Below are positions 759-9,547 of a DNA stretch of 64,000 nucleotides, one piece after another. Both the position numbers and the translations under genes were made by a program. Source of the stretch: Lachnospiraceae bacterium (GTDB taxonomy: Bacteria; Bacillota; Clostridia; Lachnospirales; Lachnospiraceae); NCBI GenBank assembly GCA_045598365.1, contig JAZLLV010000056.1:9498-73497 (forward strand), read 5' to 3'. Numbering within the stretch: the first letter of the stretch is position 1; each line of letters begins with the position of its first letter. Under the pieces are notes generated by a model. It was not told the origin of the DNA. It was given only the letters and a program-made list of their open reading frames with translations, and searched no databases.

Positions 759-787
759 AAAATGCTTTCCAAAAGAAAGCATTTTTT
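759..787 (+). terminator. Intrinsic terminator after ctpA
   Basis: 11-bp stem AAAATGCTTTC / GAAAGCATTTT with a 5-nt loop, running into a T tract. Confidence 0.75.
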
Positions 788-862
788 GTCATATATTAAG
801 CATTTATATTGCTATTTTTAAACAAATGGGGATGTTATTATATTTACGAAAAGGGGTAAAGT

Positions 863-2014
863 ATGTATCGAAACATTTATGTTGAGATAGATAATTCCAA
901 AATACTTAGTAACAGCAAACTTTTATGTGAGACCTTTCCTCACAAATACAATATTGCTGTTATAAAGGGTAATGCCTACGGCCATGGCTATGGTATTATC
1001 CCAGCCTTGATTAAAGGCGGAATGAATGCCTTTGCTGTCTCTTCTTTGGATGAGGCAATAGAGGTAAGGAAATACGATAAAGAGCATCCGGTGATAATGC
1101 TTCAGCCGGTTTCGAAAATATATTACGGACTTTGTTCCGCGGAGAACATATCGGTTCTTGTAAATGATACAGACACTCTTGAAGATGTAATTAAAAGTGG
1201 CGAGAGTCTCAAGGTACAGTTTAAGGTAAACTGCGGAATGAACAGGCTTGGCTACCGTGACGGTAGTCTCCTTTCAAGAGATGTGGACAGGGCTATGAAA
1301 TGCGACAAGGTGCAGGTGGAAGGCATTTTCTCACATTTTCATACATCAGGCCTTACAGATAACGAATACGCAGACAATCGCAGGAGATTTGAGGAAATTG
1401 TTAAGGACATAGATTTATCAAAGATTCCCATGGTTCACCTTGATAAGACACAGACAATTCTCCTTCACAAAACTCCGGATTACTGTAACGGAGCACGTTT
1501 CGGACTGTCATTGTACGGATTTCCGTCCATATATCCCTATGATGCTTCACCCAAGGGCAAGCTTCTTACCCTGAGGCGGGATATAAAGAACAGGCTCAAT
1601 CATGTGGAGCCCTCAATTGAAATAAAGAATTACGACTTAAAGCCTGCCTTTGCTTTGAAAACTGAGGTTATAGAGATTAACGTGGTTCCCGCAGGAGAGT
1701 ATGTGGGCTATGGTCTTAAATATAAAACCACAAAGGCAGAAAGAATTGCAGTTATAGATGCAGGATACGCAGACGGAATCGGAAGAAAACGTTCCGGAAC
1801 AAAGGTATGTATCAATGGCAGAAAGTATCCCATTGTGGGAGAAGTCGGCATGGGTATGTGCCAGGTACAGGTGGATGACAATGTAAAAAAGGGAGATGCG
1901 GTTACTGTTTTGGGGGCAGACATTTCCATAAAGGCCATTGCCTCGGCGCTTGAAACCACCACCTATGAAGTATTAACAAATATTAATTCACAGATTCAGA
2001 GAAGATATCTTTGA
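863..2014 (+). CDS. alr: PLP-dependent amino-acid racemase, alanine racemase fold; substrate uncertain
   Basis: PLP-lysine motif [23 protein letters not shown], catalytic Tyr in GEYVGYG, and TTTYEV. Divergent at the ANSAA and GRICMDQ positions. Confidence 0.85.
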   Translation: MYRNIYVEIDNSKILSNSKLLCETFPHKYNIAVIKGNAYGHGYGIIPALIKGGMNAFAVSSLDEAIEVRKYDKEHPVIMLQPVSKIYYGLCSAENISVLVNDTDTLEDVIKSGESLKVQFKVNCGMNRLGYRDGSLLSRDVDRAMKCDKVQVEGIFSHFHTSGLTDNEYADNRRRFEEIVKDIDLSKIPMVHLDKTQTILLHKTPDYCNGARFGLSLYGFPSIYPYDASPKGKLLTLRRDIKNRLNHVEPSIEIKNYDLKPAFALKTEVIEINVVPAGEYVGYGLKYKTTKAERIAVIDAGYADGIGRKRSGTKVCINGRKYPIVGEVGMGMCQVQVDDNVKKGDAVTVLGADISIKAIASALETTTYEVLTNINSQIQRRYL

Positions 2015-3255
2015 TGGAGAAAAGAATAATGACTCACAACGTTGTTTTGCTGGGTTCTGATATAAATGCCTATTATATGGCAAGATGCTACTACGAATTG
2101 TTTAACGAACCCGTTGATATGATAGCCGCAGAGAAGATTCGTTTTACCGAGTTTTCTTCGATTGTAAATATACAGTATCACCCGAATCTTAAGAATGAAG
2201 AAGTCTTTGTAGAGACACTTATTGAGTATGGTAAAGTCCATCTTGATAAGGGAAGGAGTCTGGTTATTCCCTGCCATGATGTATATGTGGATCTTCTTTT
2301 GAGAAAAGCCAACCAGCTTACTTCCTACTTTGTTTTTAACTGTCCTTCTTTTGAAATTGCAGACAGTTTTCTTGATAAGGAAAAATTTTATAAGAAGTAT
2401 GCAGGCAGCAAGCTTAAGTTCGCAAGAACCGAGTATTATGACTGCTCTTTAGAGGAAACAGCGCCCATTCCCGTGGATATGTTTTATCCCCTTATCATTA
2501 AGCCTGGCGACGCTATTGAGTATTACAGACATGTTTTTCCCGGTCAGCCCAAGGTATTTAAGGCAACGACCCCTGATAATGCCGTCAATTTTATCAATAA
2601 GGTTAAGGCATCAGGCTATAAGGGAACTCTTCTTGTGCAGGAATTCATTCAGGGAGATGATACGAATCTTTTTGACTCGATTTTCTATTGCAACAAAAAG
2701 GGAAAGGCTGAGCTTGCCACCTTTGCGCAGATTGGCCTTCAGGAGCATTCTCCTTCAGCCATAGGAAATGCCACTGTTTTAATTAACGGCTACAATCAGT
2801 ATGGCGGAACTGAAGAAATAATAGGGGAACTTAAGGAATTTCTTGAGGACCTTGGCTATACGGGCTTCTGTGAGTTTGACATAAAGTACGACAACAGAGA
2901 CAAGACCTTTAAGGTTATGGAAATCAATCCAAGGCAGGCCCGTTCAAGCTACTATCTTGCGGCTCTTGGTCACAACCTTATTGAGTATCTTTACAATGAT
3001 GTTTTCGAAAATGAAGAGCGTGAGTTTACTCTTCTTAAGGACGAATATCTTCTGACAATGGTTCCAAAATGCATCGTCAGAAAATACATCTTTAACACCG
3101 AATATAAGAAGAAAGCGCTTAAACTCTGGCGCAAACACAAAAAGTGCGATCCCTTAAGATTTTCAAAGGAAAAATCAATTAAGCACAGACTGTATCTTAT
3201 GCTCAGAGCTTACAGATACAGACAGAAGTACAGAAAGTTTTCCAACACCATATAG
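2014..3255 (+). CDS. ATP-grasp carboxylate-amine ligase, D-aspartate ligase (Asl/YxbA) family
   Basis: LLGSDINAYYMAR N-terminus, LIIKP, QEFIQGDD and GYTGFCEFDIKYDNRDKTFKVMEINPRQARSSYY match the Asl family from memory. ATG 2014 overlaps the racemase stop (TGATG); an alternative start at 2029 has a GGAGA SD. Confidence 0.8.
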   Translation: MEKRIMTHNVVLLGSDINAYYMARCYYELFNEPVDMIAAEKIRFTEFSSIVNIQYHPNLKNEEVFVETLIEYGKVHLDKGRSLVIPCHDVYVDLLLRKANQLTSYFVFNCPSFEIADSFLDKEKFYKKYAGSKLKFARTEYYDCSLEETAPIPVDMFYPLIIKPGDAIEYYRHVFPGQPKVFKATTPDNAVNFINKVKASGYKGTLLVQEFIQGDDTNLFDSIFYCNKKGKAELATFAQIGLQEHSPSAIGNATVLINGYNQYGGTEEIIGELKEFLEDLGYTGFCEFDIKYDNRDKTFKVMEINPRQARSSYYLAALGHNLIEYLYNDVFENEEREFTLLKDEYLLTMVPKCIVRKYIFNTEYKKKALKLWRKHKKCDPLRFSKEKSIKHRLYLMLRAYRYRQKYRKFSNTI

Positions 3256-3271
3256 GAAAGAGAGATATTCT

Positions 3272-5137
3272 ATGTGTGGATTTGCAGGTTTTATCGATAA
3301 CCTGAATACAGATAAAAAAAGAACCGTTATTAAGGAGATGAGCGATTCCATTGCCCACAGAGGTCCCGACGGAGAGGGCTTCTATGTGGATGACAGTATT
3401 GCTATGGGATTCAGACGCTTAAGCATCATTGACCTTAATACAGGAGACCAGCCCCTTTATAACGAGGACAAGTCTCTGGTTATTAACTTTAACGGTGAAA
3501 TTTATAACTACAGGGAATTAAGAGAAGATCTTATTTCCAAGGGCCATGTTTTTTATACAACCAGTGATACGGAGTCAATTCTTCATGGATTTGAAGAATA
3601 TGGAGAAAAAATTGTTGAAAAGCTTCGCGGTATGTTTGCCTTTGTTATCTGGAATAAGAATACAGGTGAACTTTTCGGAGCAAGAGACCCCTTTGGAATT
3701 AAGCCGTTTTACTATTACAATACCCCGGAGCTTTTTGCTTACGGCTCTGAAATAAAGGCTTTTCTAAGACACCCGGATTTTAAGAAGGAACTGAACAAGG
3801 ACGCACTTAAAACCTATATGTGCTTCCAGTATTCGGTTCCCACAGATACCTTTTTTAAGAATGTATATAAGTTAAATCCCGGTCATTACTTTTCGTTTAA
3901 GGATGGTGTCTTAAAGACAGAAGAGTACTTTAAGATTGAGTACAGAAACAACGAGGACGATTTAGATACAACAGTTGATAAGATAAACAACATAATGAAG
4001 GAAAGCATCGAATATCACAAAATCAGTGATGTTGAAGTAGGGGCTTTTCTTTCAAGCGGTGTTGATTCAAGCTACATAGTTGCAAATGCCAATGTTGACA
4101 AGGCCTTCACAGTGGGCTTTAAAAGCGATCACTTCGATGAGACAGAGGATGCCCACGCCCTTTGCGAAATACTTGGCATGAAGCATACAAGAAAGCATAT
4201 AACGGCAGACATGTTCTTTGATGCGCTGCCCACTGTTCAGTACCACTCCGATGAACCCCATGCGAATCTTTCCGCTGTGCCGCTTTACTTTCTGGCAAAT
4301 ATGGCGGCAAAGGAGGTTAAGGTAGTTCTTTCCGGTGAGGGTGCGGATGAACTGTTCGGAGGATATTATGAATACGAGACTCCTCCGGAATATGCAAAAT
4401 ACAATAAGATTCCTTTCCCTGTAAGACGCTTCTTAAAAGGCGTTGCGGAGAAGCTTCCCAACATGAAAGGAAGACATTTCCTTATTCGTGCAGGCTCCAC
4501 TTTGGAAGAATCCTACATCGGTCAGGCTTTTATCATGAACAACGAAGAGGCCGACAAGCTTCTAAAGCCCGACTACAGAGGGGGAAAGCTTTACAGCGAA
4601 GTTACTGTTCCTATTTTTGAAAAGGTCAAGGATAAGCCGGACCTTTTGAAGAAGATGTATCTTGATATGAATCTTTGGCTGCCCTATGACATTCTTTTGA
4701 AGGCTGACAAGATGACCATGGCGAATTCCCTGGAGTTAAGAGTTCCCTTCCTTGACAAGGAAGTGTTCAGGGTGAGCGAAGAGGTTCCTTTTAAGTATAT
4801 TATTAAGGATTATATTACCAAATATGCCTTCCGCCAGGCTGCGAATAAGACAATCCCCGAGGAATGGGCAAAGCGCAAGAAATTAGGCTTCCTTGTTCCT
4901 TTCAGAGAATGGCTTAAGGAAGATAAATGGTATGCCAAGGTAAAAGAGCAGTTTACTAAAGATTGGGTAAGCGAATTTTTCGATGTTGATGCAATAGTAC
5001 ATCTTCTTGACGAGCACAAAGCGGGAAAATGGAGCAATCAGAGAAAAATCTACACGATATATTCTTTTTTGATTTGGTATGAAGTATTTTTTATAAACGG
5101 TGCGATTGCACCAAAGGCGCCGGCTACAGAGGCGTAA
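3272..5137 (+). CDS. asnB: Asparagine synthase (glutamine-hydrolysing) family amidotransferase
   Basis: N-terminal nucleophile MCG, HRGPD, RRLSIIDL, FNGEIYNY, LSSGVDSS, LSGEGADELFGGY, SLELRVPFLD. Confidence 0.93.
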   Translation: MCGFAGFIDNLNTDKKRTVIKEMSDSIAHRGPDGEGFYVDDSIAMGFRRLSIIDLNTGDQPLYNEDKSLVINFNGEIYNYRELREDLISKGHVFYTTSDTESILHGFEEYGEKIVEKLRGMFAFVIWNKNTGELFGARDPFGIKPFYYYNTPELFAYGSEIKAFLRHPDFKKELNKDALKTYMCFQYSVPTDTFFKNVYKLNPGHYFSFKDGVLKTEEYFKIEYRNNEDDLDTTVDKINNIMKESIEYHKISDVEVGAFLSSGVDSSYIVANANVDKAFTVGFKSDHFDETEDAHALCEILGMKHTRKHITADMFFDALPTVQYHSDEPHANLSAVPLYFLANMAAKEVKVVLSGEGADELFGGYYEYETPPEYAKYNKIPFPVRRFLKGVAEKLPNMKGRHFLIRAGSTLEESYIGQAFIMNNEEADKLLKPDYRGGKLYSEVTVPIFEKVKDKPDLLKKMYLDMNLWLPYDILLKADKMTMANSLELRVPFLDKEVFRVSEEVPFKYIIKDYITKYAFRQAANKTIPEEWAKRKKLGFLVPFREWLKEDKWYAKVKEQFTKDWVSEFFDVDAIVHLLDEHKAGKWSNQRKIYTIYSFLIWYEVFFINGAIAPKAPATEA

Positions 5138-5150
5138 AAAGGAGACAAGT

Positions 5151-6416
5151 ATGAATAAATCCGTATTTGAAGAAAATGAATCAGTTGTAAGGTCCTACTG
5201 CAGAAAGTACCCTGTTGTGTTTGAAAAAGCAAAGGGCTCATACATTTATGATACCGAGGGAAAGGCATATCTTGACTTCCTTGCAGGCTGCGGTGCCCTT
5301 AACTATGGTCACAACAATGACGAAATCAAGGGAGCGGTTATCGAATACCTTATGCAGGATAACATTACCCATGCAATGGATATGTATACCAGGGCAAAGG
5401 CAGAATTCATTGATACCTTCAAAAACAATATTTTAGATAAAAGCGGACTTCAGTATAAGATTATGTTCTGCGGTTCCACAGGAACAAATGCTGTGGAAGC
5501 AGCGCTTAAGCTTTGCAGAAAGAATAAAAAACGTTCCAACATAGTTGCATTTATGGGTGCGTTCCACGGAATGACCTTAGGAAGCCTTGCACTTACCACC
5601 GACCAGACCAGCAGAGAGGGTGCAGGTGTGTCTCTTGACAATGTGACCTTCATTCCTTTTGAAAACGGCTTCTCCGGCAAGTTTGATTCTTTGGACTATC
5701 TTGAGAATATTCTTCTTGATGATCACTCCGGAATTGAAAAGCCCGCAGCAGTATTCATTGAAACTGTTCAGGCCGAAGGCGGAATTAATGTTGCAAGTGT
5801 TGAATGGCTTAAGCGCCTTGAAAAGCTTTGTCATGACAATGATATTCTTCTCGTGGCTGATGAAATTCAGGTGGGCTGCTCCAGAACAGGAACCTTCTTC
5901 TCCTTTGAAAGAGCAGGAATCAAGCCCGATATGGTTACCCTCAGTAAGTCCATCGGTGGCTATGGATTCCCTATGTCTTTGTTACTTATAAAAGAAGAAC
6001 TTGATATTTGGAAACCTGCGGAGCACAACGGAACCTTCAGAGGAAATCAGGTTGCTTTTGTAGCTGCCAAGAAAGCAATTGAAGTAAATGTAAACAGCAA
6101 TCTTAACGCAGAAGTAAGAAGAAAAGGTGAGCTTGTAAAGGCCTTTGTGGAAAAGAACCTTCTTCCTCTTGATGAAAACATTTCCTTAAGAGGACTTGGC
6201 CTTATCTGGGGTATCGATTTCGGAAAACTTTCAGGCGGCAGCGAAATTGCCCACAGGATAGCTGATAAATGCTTTACAAAGAATATGATAATCGAGCGTG
6301 CCGGAAGAGGTGACTCGGTTGTTAAGATTCTTCCTCCCCTTACCATTACGGATGAAGAACTTACAAAGGGACTTAATATTATTCTTGAATCAACAAAGGA
6401 AGTATTGGGCAGGTAA
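5151..6416 (+). CDS. ectB: Diaminobutyrate--2-oxoglutarate transaminase (EctB/Dat, class III aminotransferase)
   Basis: ESVVRSYCR, GCGALNYGHN, FHGMTLGSL, ETVQAEGG, DEIQVG, PLP-Lys in SKSIGG, EHNGTFRGN. AAGGAG SD before ATG 5151. Confidence 0.9.
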   Translation: MNKSVFEENESVVRSYCRKYPVVFEKAKGSYIYDTEGKAYLDFLAGCGALNYGHNNDEIKGAVIEYLMQDNITHAMDMYTRAKAEFIDTFKNNILDKSGLQYKIMFCGSTGTNAVEAALKLCRKNKKRSNIVAFMGAFHGMTLGSLALTTDQTSREGAGVSLDNVTFIPFENGFSGKFDSLDYLENILLDDHSGIEKPAAVFIETVQAEGGINVASVEWLKRLEKLCHDNDILLVADEIQVGCSRTGTFFSFERAGIKPDMVTLSKSIGGYGFPMSLLLIKEELDIWKPAEHNGTFRGNQVAFVAAKKAIEVNVNSNLNAEVRRKGELVKAFVEKNLLPLDENISLRGLGLIWGIDFGKLSGGSEIAHRIADKCFTKNMIIERAGRGDSVVKILPPLTITDEELTKGLNIILESTKEVLGR

Positions 6417-7865
6417 ATGAAACTCAGTGAACTGATTCCCACAGAGTGGGATGCGGATATAGAAGTAATAACCGATGACTCCCGCACCAAAGGCAAAAAT
6501 ATTCTTTTTGTGTGCGTGAAGGGACTTACCGTTGACGGACACAGCTTTGCGGCAAAAGCTGTGGAGAACGGTGCGGTTGCAATTGTGTGTGAGCACATTG
6601 TTGAAGGAATTTCAGTACCTCAGGTTGTTGTGAAAGACTCCCAGAGGGCAATGAATGAAATCCTTAATAAGTTTTACGGTGACCCTCTTTCAAAGCTTAA
6701 GCTTATAGGTGTAACAGGTACTGACGGCAAGACAACCACTTCCGAAATGATGTACCAGATTCTTAACGGTCTTTCAAAAAAAACCGGATACATCGGAACC
6801 AACGGCATACGTTCCGAGCACTACACTCAGGACAACGAATACACCACTCCTCTTCAGGGAGATTTGTTTAAGGCACTTAACGGTTTTTCCGAAGATTCCT
6901 GTGAATTTGTTTCAATGGAAGCTTCAGGCGAAAGACTTGGCACGGGAAAAATGGATGGTGTGGAATTTGATGCCTCCATATACACCAATCTTACAAGAGA
7001 TGCTTTGGACCTTTTTAAGACCATGGAGAACTATGGCAGTGCAAAGGCAAAGCTTATGGAATACACCAAAAAGTCCGGAGTCTGTGTCATAAACAAGGAT
7101 GATAAGTATTCGCCCATGTTTATTGAAAAGGCAAACGGTAAGGTTATCACCTATGGTGTGGAAGATAAGACGGCAGATGTATATGCAACCGATGTAAATA
7201 TTGCATATAATAATCTTTCCTTTACCATGAACGGTGTTCTTGGAACCCATAAGATAAAATGCAGCCTTTCAGGCATTTTCAATGTTTATAATATTATGGC
7301 AGTGATTTCCGCCCTTAACCATTTCGGCATTGAAGTGGAAACCCTTGTTAAGCAGGTCTCACTGCTTAAACCCATTGAAGCCAGACAGACTGTTGTGGAC
7401 TTTGGCCAGCCCTTCAGGGTAATTGTGGACTACGCACATACCGCCAATGCAGTAAAAAATCTTGTGGAATATATTAAATCCACTCTTACGGACGGCTTTT
7501 TACGTGTGGTTGTGGGCGCCGGCGGTTCAAGAGACATAAACAGAAGAACCGACATGGCCGAGTATTGCACCAAAATGGCGGATTACAATTATTTTACCAT
7601 AGAAGATGCCAGATTTGAGGATCCGCAGATGCTGGTGGAAACCATGGTTTCTACGGTTCCGACTGCTCATAATTACGAATTGATTGTGGACAGGGATGAG
7701 GCGATTGCCAAGGCTATCCACGATGCCAAGCCCGGTGATGCAATATTAATCCTTGGTAAAGGGGCTGAGCGTTATATGCTTACCAACGGAGTTCAGGTAG
7801 AACGCCCCAACGATATTGAAAGAGCCGCAATGGTTCTTAAAGAAATGGGTTATGAAGAAAAATAA
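6417..7865 (+). CDS. murE: MurE-family Mur ligase (third stem-peptide residue) with atypical specificity loop
   Basis: DSR, DGH, P-loop GVTGTDGKTTT, TNLTRD, VDYAHT, GGSRD, GKG. EDARFEDP occupies the DNPRxEDP position. Starts immediately after the ectB stop. Confidence 0.85.
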   Translation: MKLSELIPTEWDADIEVITDDSRTKGKNILFVCVKGLTVDGHSFAAKAVENGAVAIVCEHIVEGISVPQVVVKDSQRAMNEILNKFYGDPLSKLKLIGVTGTDGKTTTSEMMYQILNGLSKKTGYIGTNGIRSEHYTQDNEYTTPLQGDLFKALNGFSEDSCEFVSMEASGERLGTGKMDGVEFDASIYTNLTRDALDLFKTMENYGSAKAKLMEYTKKSGVCVINKDDKYSPMFIEKANGKVITYGVEDKTADVYATDVNIAYNNLSFTMNGVLGTHKIKCSLSGIFNVYNIMAVISALNHFGIEVETLVKQVSLLKPIEARQTVVDFGQPFRVIVDYAHTANAVKNLVEYIKSTLTDGFLRVVVGAGGSRDINRRTDMAEYCTKMADYNYFTIEDARFEDPQMLVETMVSTVPTAHNYELIVDRDEAIAKAIHDAKPGDAILILGKGAERYMLTNGVQVERPNDIERAAMVLKEMGYEEK

Positions 7866-7936: not shown

Positions 7937-9547
7937 ATGGTTAATGTAATCAGAAAGCAAGATAATATAGTTAGAAAAACCGTATGCATGTTGATTTTTA
8001 GCCTTATTGTATCTTTTTGCTTTGTTGCAGGTAAAATATATGACACTGAGTTGACAGATTCCATTTTTTCTGTTTTTTTTGTGAAAAAATACATATTTTT
8101 TGTTCTGTTTTTTTTTACTACACTCTTCTTTTCTTGCTTTATTTATACGTTTATCAAGTCGAATAATGACAAGAAGCGCGTTCTTTTTATAAAAAGTGGC
8201 CCAAGTAAAAGACTCGTGTGTCTATTGCCTTTATGCTGCTACGCTATTTCGTTACTGTCAATTTTTCCCGGGATTTTTTCATACGATTGTTGGCAGGAAT
8301 GGGATATGATTGAAAAAGGAATGCTTTCTTCGCATCATCCGGTATTGCATGTGCTTATTTTGGGTGGCTTTACAAGCCTATCAAATTATATATTTGGTAG
8401 TGGTAATGTGGGAATCTTTTTGTATGTGTCTCTACAAATATTCTTTTTCTTGATTGTGTTTAGATATATTTTTCTATATATGGATGAAAAGGGTACCAGT
8501 CCATTGTCACAATGGACTGCGTTGTGTTTTGTCTCATTATCTCCAATTATCAATTTATTTGTTTTGGCTACTTCAAAGGACAGTTTGTTTGCTATATTTG
8601 AGCTTCTATTTGCCTTTGAGTCTGTGCGTTTATACAAAGAAAAAAGCTATTTGGAAGAAAAGAAAAATGTAGTAATATTTCTATTTGCCTCACTTGGCAC
8701 GATGATTTTTAGAAACAATGGATTATATATTGTCGTGTTAACGAATCTCATTATGTTGTTTCTCTGTAAGGGACGACGATTAAAATTGTTGATACCATAC
8801 GCGATTATTGGCGTAATTTATCTGGCATATACAGGGCCGTTTTACAATTTGCTTTCGGTAGAAGCTGGAAGCAAACGAGAAATGCTTTCTGTACCAATTC
8901 AGCAACTTGCCAGAGTGCATCAGTACGATTTTGACGATTTTACTAAAAATGAATTAAACATAATGTATTCGGTTATTGATAAAGAGAATTGGAACCAATA
9001 TGTTCCAACTTGTGCAGATGCAGTAAAAAACGGATTCGACGATGAAGCGTTTTCAAAAGCTGGTAAAGATTTTCTGAAAATATGGGTGAAACATGGGATA
9101 AATCATCCTGCGACTTATGCGAATGCATTTTTGATTAATACTGTTGACTATTGGTATCCGTTAGCTGTGAATGACAATTACGCTTGGTTATATGGAAAAG
9201 ATGAAAAAATAGGTGATTTTTTCGATTATAGGGTTGCAGAGCCGGGAAATGAGGTAGTAATAATTAAACCTTTGCATGATTTTTATTATTACATTTCGAC
9301 GGATTTACTTGTTACAAGCAAAATAATTCCTGCGCTGTTCTTAAATCCGGGTGTATATTTATTGCTGTGGATTGCATGCATGTTTTGGGACATTGCGAAT
9401 AAGATAACTTCGCGTGCGCCGATTCACATAGTGTTGTTATTTAACTTTTGGACAGTTCTTTTAGGTCCGATGGTTCAAGTAAGGTATATTGTCGTTTTGT
9501 ACTTTATAGTTCCATTGTGGTTTATGCATCAGCCTGCGGAATGCTAA
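7937..9547 (+). CDS. Multi-pass membrane protein, DUF6020-like (putative GT-C-fold glycan-modifying enzyme)
   Basis: Many hydrophobic helices; motifs PGIFSYD, HHPVLH, KDSLFA, FRNNG, SVPIQQLARV, GPMVQVRY. Clear paralog at 55517-57124. Visibly AT-richer than its flanks. Confidence 0.65.
   Translation: MVNVIRKQDNIVRKTVCMLIFSLIVSFCFVAGKIYDTELTDSIFSVFFVKKYIFFVLFFFTTLFFSCFIYTFIKSNNDKKRVLFIKSGPSKRLVCLLPLCCYAISLLSIFPGIFSYDCWQEWDMIEKGMLSSHHPVLHVLILGGFTSLSNYIFGSGNVGIFLYVSLQIFFFLIVFRYIFLYMDEKGTSPLSQWTALCFVSLSPIINLFVLATSKDSLFAIFELLFAFESVRLYKEKSYLEEKKNVVIFLFASLGTMIFRNNGLYIVVLTNLIMLFLCKGRRLKLLIPYAIIGVIYLAYTGPFYNLLSVEAGSKREMLSVPIQQLARVHQYDFDDFTKNELNIMYSVIDKENWNQYVPTCADAVKNGFDDEAFSKAGKDFLKIWVKHGINHPATYANAFLINTVDYWYPLAVNDNYAWLYGKDEKIGDFFDYRVAEPGNEVVIIKPLHDFYYYISTDLLVTSKIIPALFLNPGVYLLLWIACMFWDIANKITSRAPIHIVLLFNFWTVLLGPMVQVRYIVVLYFIVPLWFMHQPAEC

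Follow-up and report, generated by a model that had tools for sequence, protein, structure and literature searches.

In the known route to D-aspartate (D-Asp) branches of bacterial peptidoglycan, the racemase RacD makes D-Asp, the ligase Asl couples D-Asp through the beta-carboxyl to the side-chain amine of stem residue 3, and AsnH amidates the alpha-carboxyl (Bellais 2006 and Veiga 2009, as cited in PMC13631041). The RacD/Asl/AsnH systems of Lactococcus lactis, Enterococcus faecium and lactobacilli (with the ligases AslA and Aslfm) place a racemase gene beside the genes of an Asl-type ligase and an AsnB-family amidotransferase, and their racemase is a cofactor-free, two-Cys protein of family PF01177. 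In the literature searched, bacterial cell-wall D-Asp came only from this cofactor-free RacD family (PMC13631041). Here we describe a locus of similar layout with a racemase of a different fold. It lies in a stretch of 64,000 nucleotides, hereafter the window, from the Lachnospiraceae bacterium assembly GCA_045598365.1 (contig JAZLLV010000056.1, positions 9,498 to 73,497 of the forward strand). The racemase is a paralog of alanine racemase (Alr) that uses pyridoxal 5'-phosphate (PLP) and a Lys/Tyr pair, and its gene overlaps that of an Asl-type ligase. We propose, with a probability of roughly 0.55, that this racemase supplies D-Asp to the coupled ligase for a side branch on residue 3. The logic would be that of the known systems, in which a D-amino acid is made, attached to the residue-3 side-chain amine and then amidated. 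The acceptor there is L-Lys or L-Orn, whereas here it is probably L-2,4-diaminobutyrate (L-Dab); the ligases of the known systems form a sister clade to those of the window type, for which we infer the substrate.

The housekeeping alanine racemases Alr and DadX (1SFT, 3E5P and 6G56) have the same fold as the window protein and the same PLP-binding and catalytic residues, including Tyr354 (Geobacillus Alr numbering). Their entryway is strictly conserved, with an inner layer of Tyr265', Tyr354, Tyr284' and an Ala and a middle layer of Arg309', Ile352, Arg290' and Asp171 (PMC3146814), and Asp313' is fully conserved in Alr (PMC10288493). Racemases of other specificity have likewise been derived from Alr by changes around the side chain or the entryway: VanT (Ser), BsrV and Bar (broad spectrum), Lyr (Lys) and the histidine racemase of Leuconostoc (5ZL6). 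VanT, BsrV, Bar and Lyr replace Tyr354 (Asn, Pro, Ala, Thr; PMC4542195), whereas the window clade keeps it. Bsr carries D313N and is periplasmic with a signal peptide; the window protein, in contrast, has Gly331 at that position and no signal peptide. None of these enzymes has the basic helix insertion described below. The PDB chains of Bsr and Lyr match the window racemase weakly (E = 1e-15 to 1e-12), and the VanT model NF033131 scores it at 192 bits against a cut-off of 460, Tyr368 standing where VanT has Asn.

Public records label genes of this kind 'alanine racemase', and profile search found both Alr domains in the window protein (PF01168, E = 2.9e-38; PF00842, E = 4.4e-34). The score against TIGR00492 was 235 bits (cut-off 168), the insertion splitting the match into two segments. 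The AlphaFold2 model, for which 62 sequences were used, had a mean predicted local distance difference test (pLDDT) of 93.7 and a predicted template modelling score of 0.89, and Foldseek aligned it with the solved alanine racemases 6G56, 3E5P and 1SFT at a template modelling score of about 0.85. The motif AVIKGNAYGHG, which contains Lys35, is at 956-988 in translated coordinates. The protein holds Lys35, Tyr39, Lys121, Arg128, His158, His192, Thr196, Arg212, Tyr283 and Tyr368, the roles of the corresponding catalytic and PLP-binding residues of Alr being those given in PMC3146814. Conservation was counted in 118 homologues down to 40% identity (a level at which proteins of 383-390 residues are still found) and in four distant lineages. 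The Alr set Tyr43, Lys129, Arg136, His166, His200, Arg219 and Tyr354 was invariant in the 118 homologues, as were both catalytic residues, and Ser204 (position 196) was Thr or Ser; in the four distant lineages this set was likewise unchanged or conservatively replaced. The racemase is thus predicted to be a catalytically intact two-base PLP enzyme (Lys35 and Tyr283') with a rebuilt channel. Its N-terminus, MYRNIYVEIDNSK, has no hydrophobic leader, and the enzyme is predicted to be cytoplasmic.

The rebuilt channel is seen at positions that are conserved in alanine racemases. Asp171, whose role is in the middle layer of the entryway (PMC3146814), is Gly in all 118 homologues and in three of the four distant lineages, against Asp in canonical Alr. 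Asn203 of canonical Alr is replaced by Lys or Arg in 118/118 homologues and 4/4 distant lineages, Ala206 by Thr in 117/118, and Arg309' by Glu or Asp in 115/118. Compared with housekeeping Alr, Cys311' is also usually Gly, and Asp313' is Gly in 110 of the 118, with Asp retained in three carriers from outside the window's genus (genomes G544, G609 and G787). The canonical entryway is therefore altered at Asp171, Arg309' and Asp313', while its three Tyr and Arg290' are retained. A sequence-only reading of this DNA had reported intact catalytic Lys and Tyr motifs, the GEVGMGM and HLDKTQT replacements and an insertion of about 30 residues after the LYG motif, and each of these was recovered on translation (Table 1).

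The insertion lies in the linker that in the Alr of S. pneumoniae contains Val232, an outer-layer entryway residue (PMC3146814). In a pairwise alignment, the genome's own canonical Alr had no residues opposite 30 columns of it, and the region measures 31-42 residues in the insertion clade versus 5-16 in canonical Alr representatives. It contains a conserved basic amphipathic helix with the core pattern [LI]-K-G-[RK]-[LI]-R-K-[LI], and means of pLDDT over 10-residue blocks were 85-92 for residues 221-250. The mean net charge of the insertion was +5.8 in the 118 members (range +3 to +9) and +4 to +9 in the distant lineages. Alongside the basic helix, Asp171 and Glu172 are lost and Lys/Arg195 is gained. 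Given its conservation in the 118 homologues and the four distant lineages, this signature, as read from the alignments, is not due to chance. In a library of 1.84 billion representative proteins, insertion carriers formed about 35-40 clusters at 50% identity; in the tree they are a single clade (support 0.986), a few members of which no longer have the insertion. The most widespread subtype of this clade is that of the window (Gly163, Lys/Arg195, Thr198, Tyr368). Other branches have Ser at 195, and in them Tyr354 is replaced by Gln, Leu, Ser, Ala or His.

The genome, which is 97% complete, also encodes a canonical alr (G000:C28:15683-16795, 365 bits), to which the window racemase is 30% identical with 30 extra residues. 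This is the separate housekeeping gene that the sequence-only reading had advised looking for. Its view that the window enzyme is not a plain housekeeping Alr was borne out, given that a canonical alr coexists with it in the own genome and in 12/12 tested species and that conserved positions are altered. Of the 31 species of the window's genus, 30 carry the racemase. Elsewhere in the family, sampled with a single genome for each genus (200 and then 400 genera), more than 400 other genera yielded no carrier. Sampling of the class Clostridia added four carriers outside the genus, G544, G631, G609 and G787. The insertion-clade enzyme occurs together with a canonical alr (344-397 bits) in the own genome, all 12 tested species of the genus, G609 and G787; in G544 and G631 (1.2-1.3 Mb, 100% complete) it is the sole Alr-family protein.

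The constant unit in these genomes is the racemase together with the ligase. The two reading frames overlap by 1 nucleotide in the window, and in every lineage examined of the window's subtype the racemase lies directly upstream of the ligase, while EctB, MurE and AsnB are variable. The suggestion that the racemase serves the neighbouring ligase is in agreement with this recurrence. Gene order was racemase, ATP-grasp ligase, AsnB, EctB and MurE at all seven loci of the genus that were compared (one of which ends at a contig end, and one of which, L005, is from the cultured isolate Lachnospiraceae bacterium YSD2013). The YSD2013 racemase shows 71% identity to that of the window. Outside the genus the order was racemase, ligase and MurE in G631, MurD, racemase and ligase in G544, and racemase, ligase and AsnB in G609 and G787.

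The partner proteins connect this unit to the D-Asp systems. Relatives of the ligase were found by tblastn of plasmid-labelled records, in three lactobacilli and in Subdoligranulum. In Latilactobacillus curvatus the relative is directly downstream of a 233-residue RacD-type 'amino acid racemase', in Lactobacillus crispatus it is directly downstream of asnB, and in Subdoligranulum variabile the order is ligase, RacD-type racemase, AsnB. The window ligase is 29% identical to the L. curvatus ligase over 408 residues from end to end (E = 2e-62), and its assignment as Asl-type was made through this ligase adjoining RacD rather than through the characterised Aslfm itself. A 52% homologue carries the JGI name 'D-aspartate ligase'; a PDB sequence search with the ligase gave nothing useful. 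The window AsnB is 54-55% identical to the AsnB of G609 and G787, 51% to that of the S. variabile ligase-RacD-AsnB triad and 43% to that next to the L. crispatus ligase, compared with 28% for the other AsnB of its own genome.

No RacD was found in the operon, in line with the sequence-only reading, and no RacD-type protein was found in G544, G631, G609 or G787. The sole PF01177 protein of the genome is encoded elsewhere (G000:C44:4735-5454; L014:1483-2181) and is YgeA-like (TIGR00035, 150 bits). It has TAVTMH where RacD has TCNTAH, that is, Ala at the first catalytic Cys, with the second Cys kept (GCTEL), and from these motifs it is probably not a two-base racemase. Among the 31 species of the genus it was detected in at least about 7, a minimum because it was picked up with the MurI model. 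As a candidate for RacD or MurI it was rejected because of the missing Cys and the detection in only about 7/31 species. Given that the Alr-fold enzyme occupies the RacD slot in otherwise homologous loci, it can be read as the supplier of D-Asp. Moreover, since the carriers have no other Asp racemase and the AsnB is of the AsnH type, D-Asp, which the sequence-only reading had named as the alternative substrate, is now favoured. In G609 and G787 the insertion-clade enzyme occurs alongside a canonical Alr and a clear MurI, so it should make a third D-amino acid.

In the proposed pathway, EctB would make L-Dab and the MurE of the cassette would add it at stem position 3. The acceptor of the branch in this genus is probably L-Dab because EctB and MurE are both in the operon; no paper on Dab peptidoglycan in Lachnospiraceae was found in the literature searched. 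The racemase would convert L-Asp to D-Asp and pass it to the translationally coupled ligase, which would activate the beta-carboxyl of D-Asp and join it to the side-chain amine of Dab, and the AsnH-type AsnB would amidate the free alpha-carboxyl to give D-isoasparagine. Within the racemase, the loss of Asp171, Glu172 and usually Asp313' would clear negative charge from the path of the substrate, and Lys/Arg195, together with the basic helix close to the mouth of the channel, may bind or draw in the second carboxyl group of aspartate. Lys/Arg195 is within the HxANSAA motif; as placed by a numbering offset from the VanT study, this motif and the loop after LYG are near the substrate side chain. 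The enzyme probably still racemises alanine too, an activity very probably kept given that in G544 and G631 it is the Alr family's only member. Alanine activity likewise survives in VanT (PMC4542195), and the retention of Tyr354 fits such an activity.

Several observations weigh against D-Asp as the substrate. We know of no Alr-fold enzyme that acts on acidic amino acids. Tyr354 is invariant in the clade, and the Alr-fold enzymes known for substrates larger than alanine all replaced it (PMC4542195). A 2026 review of D-Asp never mentions a PLP-dependent or Alr-type source (PMC13631041), and no paper on a fold-type III aspartate racemase or on a PLP-dependent microbial source of D-Asp was found in the literature searched. 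In G544 and G631 the enzyme must racemise alanine, and in principle it could be an alanine racemase only. The Alr-coupled and RacD-coupled ligases are sister clades (27-31% identity) that are not intermixed, and their substrates could differ. Finally, the charge changes partly cancel, with Arg309' to Glu or Asp set against Asn203 to Lys or Arg and Asp171 to Gly. Reading the charge of the substrate from single substitutions was rejected for this reason, as the changes partly compensate each other.

The last point bears directly on the substrate that the sequence-only reading had preferred, D-Dab, for which it had taken the Arg-to-Glu change as a hint of a basic substrate. According to this explanation L-Dab made by EctB would be converted to D-Dab for the ligase, and both the presence of EctB in the same operon in this genus and the change of Arg309' to Glu or Asp speak for it. 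That change, however, always comes with Asp171 to Gly, Asn203 to Lys or Arg and the +5.8 helix, and the channel is not more acidic overall; the insertion is in fact strongly basic. EctB (NF006733, cut-off 438 bits) was absent from G544, G631, G609 and G787, while two controls from the genus scored 609-621 bits. As these four EctB-less carriers, from three genera, share the racemase signature and the ligase, Dab is not expected to be the substrate of the family, and D-Dab was rejected on this ground. In a further locus (L015) the pair has no EctB beside it. What Asl-type ligases activate, moreover, is a carboxylate on the amino acid to be added (Bellais 2006, as cited in PMC13631041), and a Dab branch would offer AsnB no carboxyl to amidate; a D-Dab racemase is accordingly highly improbable. 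Another D-amino acid for the ligase (D-Ser, D-Asn, D-Orn or D-Lys) would be compatible with a ligase clade distinct from the characterised-type Asl ligases and with active-site residues that are visibly diversified across the insertion clade. The recurrent AsnH-type AsnB nevertheless implies a free carboxyl on the added residue, and Tyr354 disfavours long side chains, VanT-type Ser racemases carrying Asn there (PMC4542195), which makes these substrates very unlikely. A further rival is a second alanine racemase that forms only D-Ala; the changes would then serve partner docking, dimer stability or regulation, and the substrate of the ligase would come from elsewhere. Many bacteria have two alanine racemases (alr and dadX). 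The TIGR00492 score exceeds its cut-off, the catalytic residues are all kept, as is Tyr354, the determinant of alanine specificity (PMC4542195), and in G544 and G631 the clade must make D-Ala in the absence of another Alr-family protein. This explanation would leave unaccounted the alteration of strictly conserved entryway residues and, in most members, of the fully conserved Asp313' (PMC3146814, PMC10288493), the overlap with the ligase gene and adjacency to it throughout the window's subtype, and the lack of another D-Asp source in carriers of the pair. The gene is also kept in 30/31 species of the genus although a canonical alr is found in the own genome and in 12/12 tested species, and the racemase subtype switches with the type of ligase. 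We therefore consider an enzyme for D-Ala alone unlikely.

The remaining explanation, a PLP-dependent glutamate racemase that provides D-Glu both for MurD, replacing MurI, and for the ligase, which would then build a D-Glu (D-isoGln) branch, arises from a gap in the genus. D-Glu is normally made by MurI or Dat (PMC8788868). MurI (TIGR00067 above cut-off) was found in 0/31 species of the genus (G201-G230 and the own genome), compared with 37/40 genomes of other genera of the same family and order, and phmmer with two MurI queries against all open reading frames (ORFs) of the own genome returned only the YgeA-like protein (26 bits). Dat (TIGR01121) was below the cut-off in all 71 genomes, the best matches being IlvE-like, and it was rejected as the D-Glu source for that reason; the sole class-IV aminotransferase of the own genome is IlvE type II. 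The genome has canonical MurC, MurD (292 bits, cut-off 212), MurE and MurF, and the Alr paralog is its only unassigned racemase. In this genus the racemase may thus also supply D-Glu. G544 also lacks MurI and has the gene directly 3' of murD, and the separation of Alr-coupled from RacD-coupled ligases would suit a different substrate. However, a normal MurI accompanies the pair in G631, G609 and G787, where a dedicated Glu racemase would be superfluous, and three Lachnospirales genomes (G007, G232 and G257, the last a single contig) had no MurI, no Dat and no insertion-clade racemase, so that there may be an unrecognised D-Glu route in Lachnospirales. A strict replacement of MurI by the racemase was rejected on these two grounds, and the link between MurI absence and the racemase is suggestive but not established. 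Retained Tyr354 would also make a Glu side chain harder to fit than Asp (as judged from PMC4542195), and the AsnB is orthologous to that of D-Asp systems. A dedicated Glu racemase is, in our judgement, decidedly unlikely. The gap resembles that which led to MurD2/MurL of Xanthomonas, likewise found from genomes with D-Glu peptidoglycan but without MurI and Dat (PMC8788868). Those are unrelated proteins of unrelated chemistry, known only from Proteobacteria and rare actinobacteria, whereas the window genome has a canonical MurD, and its candidate, a PLP racemase, would act on a free amino acid. All four combinations of canonical Alr and MurI occur among carriers: both are present in G609 and G787, only canonical Alr in the window's genus, only MurI in G631 and neither in G544. 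Such a pattern would be permitted by a multi-substrate racemase, and a cytoplasmic enzyme making D-Asp, D-Glu and D-Ala is a tentative possibility, well short of an even chance.

Loci of other branches indicate how the unit varies. Two members of the Ser195 subtype, with Tyr354 replaced, adjoin an ATP-grasp protein of another family (PF14397) and a MurJ-like flippase; since this subtype adjoins a different ATP-grasp, the racemase subtype changes with the ligase type. At these loci (L044:2368-6201 and L045:3005-7164) Gln or Leu stands for Tyr354, the flippase is of the MurJ/Polysacc_synt type and a MurT-like gene is near the L045 locus. They are probably another peptidoglycan or glycopolymer branch system with a different D-amino acid.

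In a low-GC (guanine plus cytosine) gut clade with about 40% identity to the window racemase, the five-gene set recurs in unrelated surroundings, and at another locus of this clade the AsnB is 7 kb away. EctB is part of the cassette only in the window's genus and one related clade. The trees of racemase and ligase both nest the Lachnospiraceae genus within the low-GC gut clade, and this nesting suggests that the genus gained the five-gene cassette through horizontal transfer. At L015, in the same ~40%-identity clade, the racemase-ligase pair is alone inside the dcw cluster. That pair (L015:7318-11218) lies between two penicillin-binding protein genes, in the usual place of murE/murF, and is preceded by a DUF1846 gene (PF08903, PRK13663). 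Also in the low-GC clade, a Mur ligase of 505-529 residues is convergent with the cassette MurE (L011:16903-18483, L016:15745-17262, L017:6947-8527 and L018:14739-16328, minus strand); the one from L018, which alone was scanned, had MurF as its best match (222 bits against a cut-off of 289), about 165 N-terminal residues remaining unmatched. In G609 (L037:3933-10970) the canonical alr is on the same strand about 5 kb downstream of racemase-ligase-AsnB, with a 545-residue ORF in between. In one species of the genus the cassette ectB (G212:C1:113442-114698) has a single in-frame TAA, which points to a sequencing error or else to recent pseudogene formation.

The coordinates of the window operon and of the racemase features are given in Table 1. 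The hairpin that follows the upstream S41 protease gene is, as read from the sequence, the upstream limit of the operon, with the racemase as its first gene. On the other side, MurE is followed by a gene for a polytopic DUF6020 membrane protein (7937-9547), with a GC content of 0.33 versus about 0.42 for the cassette; in other lineages this gene does not belong to the cassette, and an acyltransferase_3 or GT2 gene stands in its place.

Table 1. Positions of operon elements and racemase features in the window (residue names with primes and those after 'Alr' follow Geobacillus Alr).
Feature	Positions	Strand	Remarks
Hairpin followed by T-run, after S41 protease gene	759..785		12-pair stem AAAATGCTTTC...GAAAGCATTTT, then TTTTTG on the + strand
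Promoter-like hexamers TTTAAA, 16 nt, TATATT	817..844	+	Consensus matches only
Putative ribosome-binding site AAAGGGG	850..856	+	6 nt before ATG; consensus match
Alr-fold PLP racemase paralog, 383 residues	863..2014	+	Insertion-clade member; first gene of the cassette
Lys35, PLP-binding catalytic Lys (Alr Lys39)	965..967	+	Invariant in 118/118 homologues
Ser162-Gly163-Leu164 for Alr entryway triplet Ala-Asp-Glu	1346..1354	+	Asp171 to Gly
HLDKTQT for Alr HxANSAA	1436..1456	+	Asn203 to Lys/Arg, Ala206 to Thr; phosphate-binding Ser204 kept as Thr/Ser
31-residue insertion PSIYPYDASPKGKLLTLRRDIKNRLNHVEPS	1523..1615	+	Directly 3' of LYGF, in linker just upstream of outer-layer entryway residue
Conserved basic amphipathic helix, residues 230-245, PKGKLLTLRRDIKNRL	1550..1597	+	Helix predicted by AlphaFold2
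Tyr283, second catalytic base (Alr Tyr265')	1709..1711	+	Invariant among 118 homologues
GEVGMGM for Alr GR(K)ICMDQ(M)	1838..1858	+	Arg309' to Glu, Cys311' to Gly, Asp313' to Gly
Tyr368 (Alr Tyr354), kept	1964..1966	+	Invariant among 118 homologues
Asl-type ATP-grasp ligase	2014..3255	+	ATG overlaps racemase stop (TGATG) by 1 nt
AsnH-type glutamine-dependent amidotransferase (AsnB family)	3272..5137	+	
EctB-type L-2,4-diaminobutyrate transaminase	5151..6416	+	NF006733, 604 bits (cut-off 438)
MurE	6417..7865	+	Sole MurE of the genome

The absence of both MurI and Dat across the genus reopens the question of how D-Glu is made there, and it was a similar gap that led to MurD2/MurL (PMC8788868). 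If the insertion-clade enzyme does make all three of D-Asp, D-Glu and D-Ala, peptidoglycan would for the first time be seen to draw acidic D-amino acids from a PLP-dependent enzyme of the Alr fold, and this enzyme would have allowed the loss of MurI in the genus, of canonical Alr in G631 and of both in G544. From the cassette an unusual wall is expected in a rumen and gut genus that has a cultured member, YSD2013: L-Dab at position 3 would bear an amidated D-Asp branch, and the stem in YSD2013 is predicted to read L-Ala, D-iGlu, L-Dab(D-iAsn), D-Ala. An Alr-fold enzyme for D-Asp would, if this is true, extend a classic drug-target fold to a new specificity and represent a non-orthologous displacement inside a well-studied pathway.

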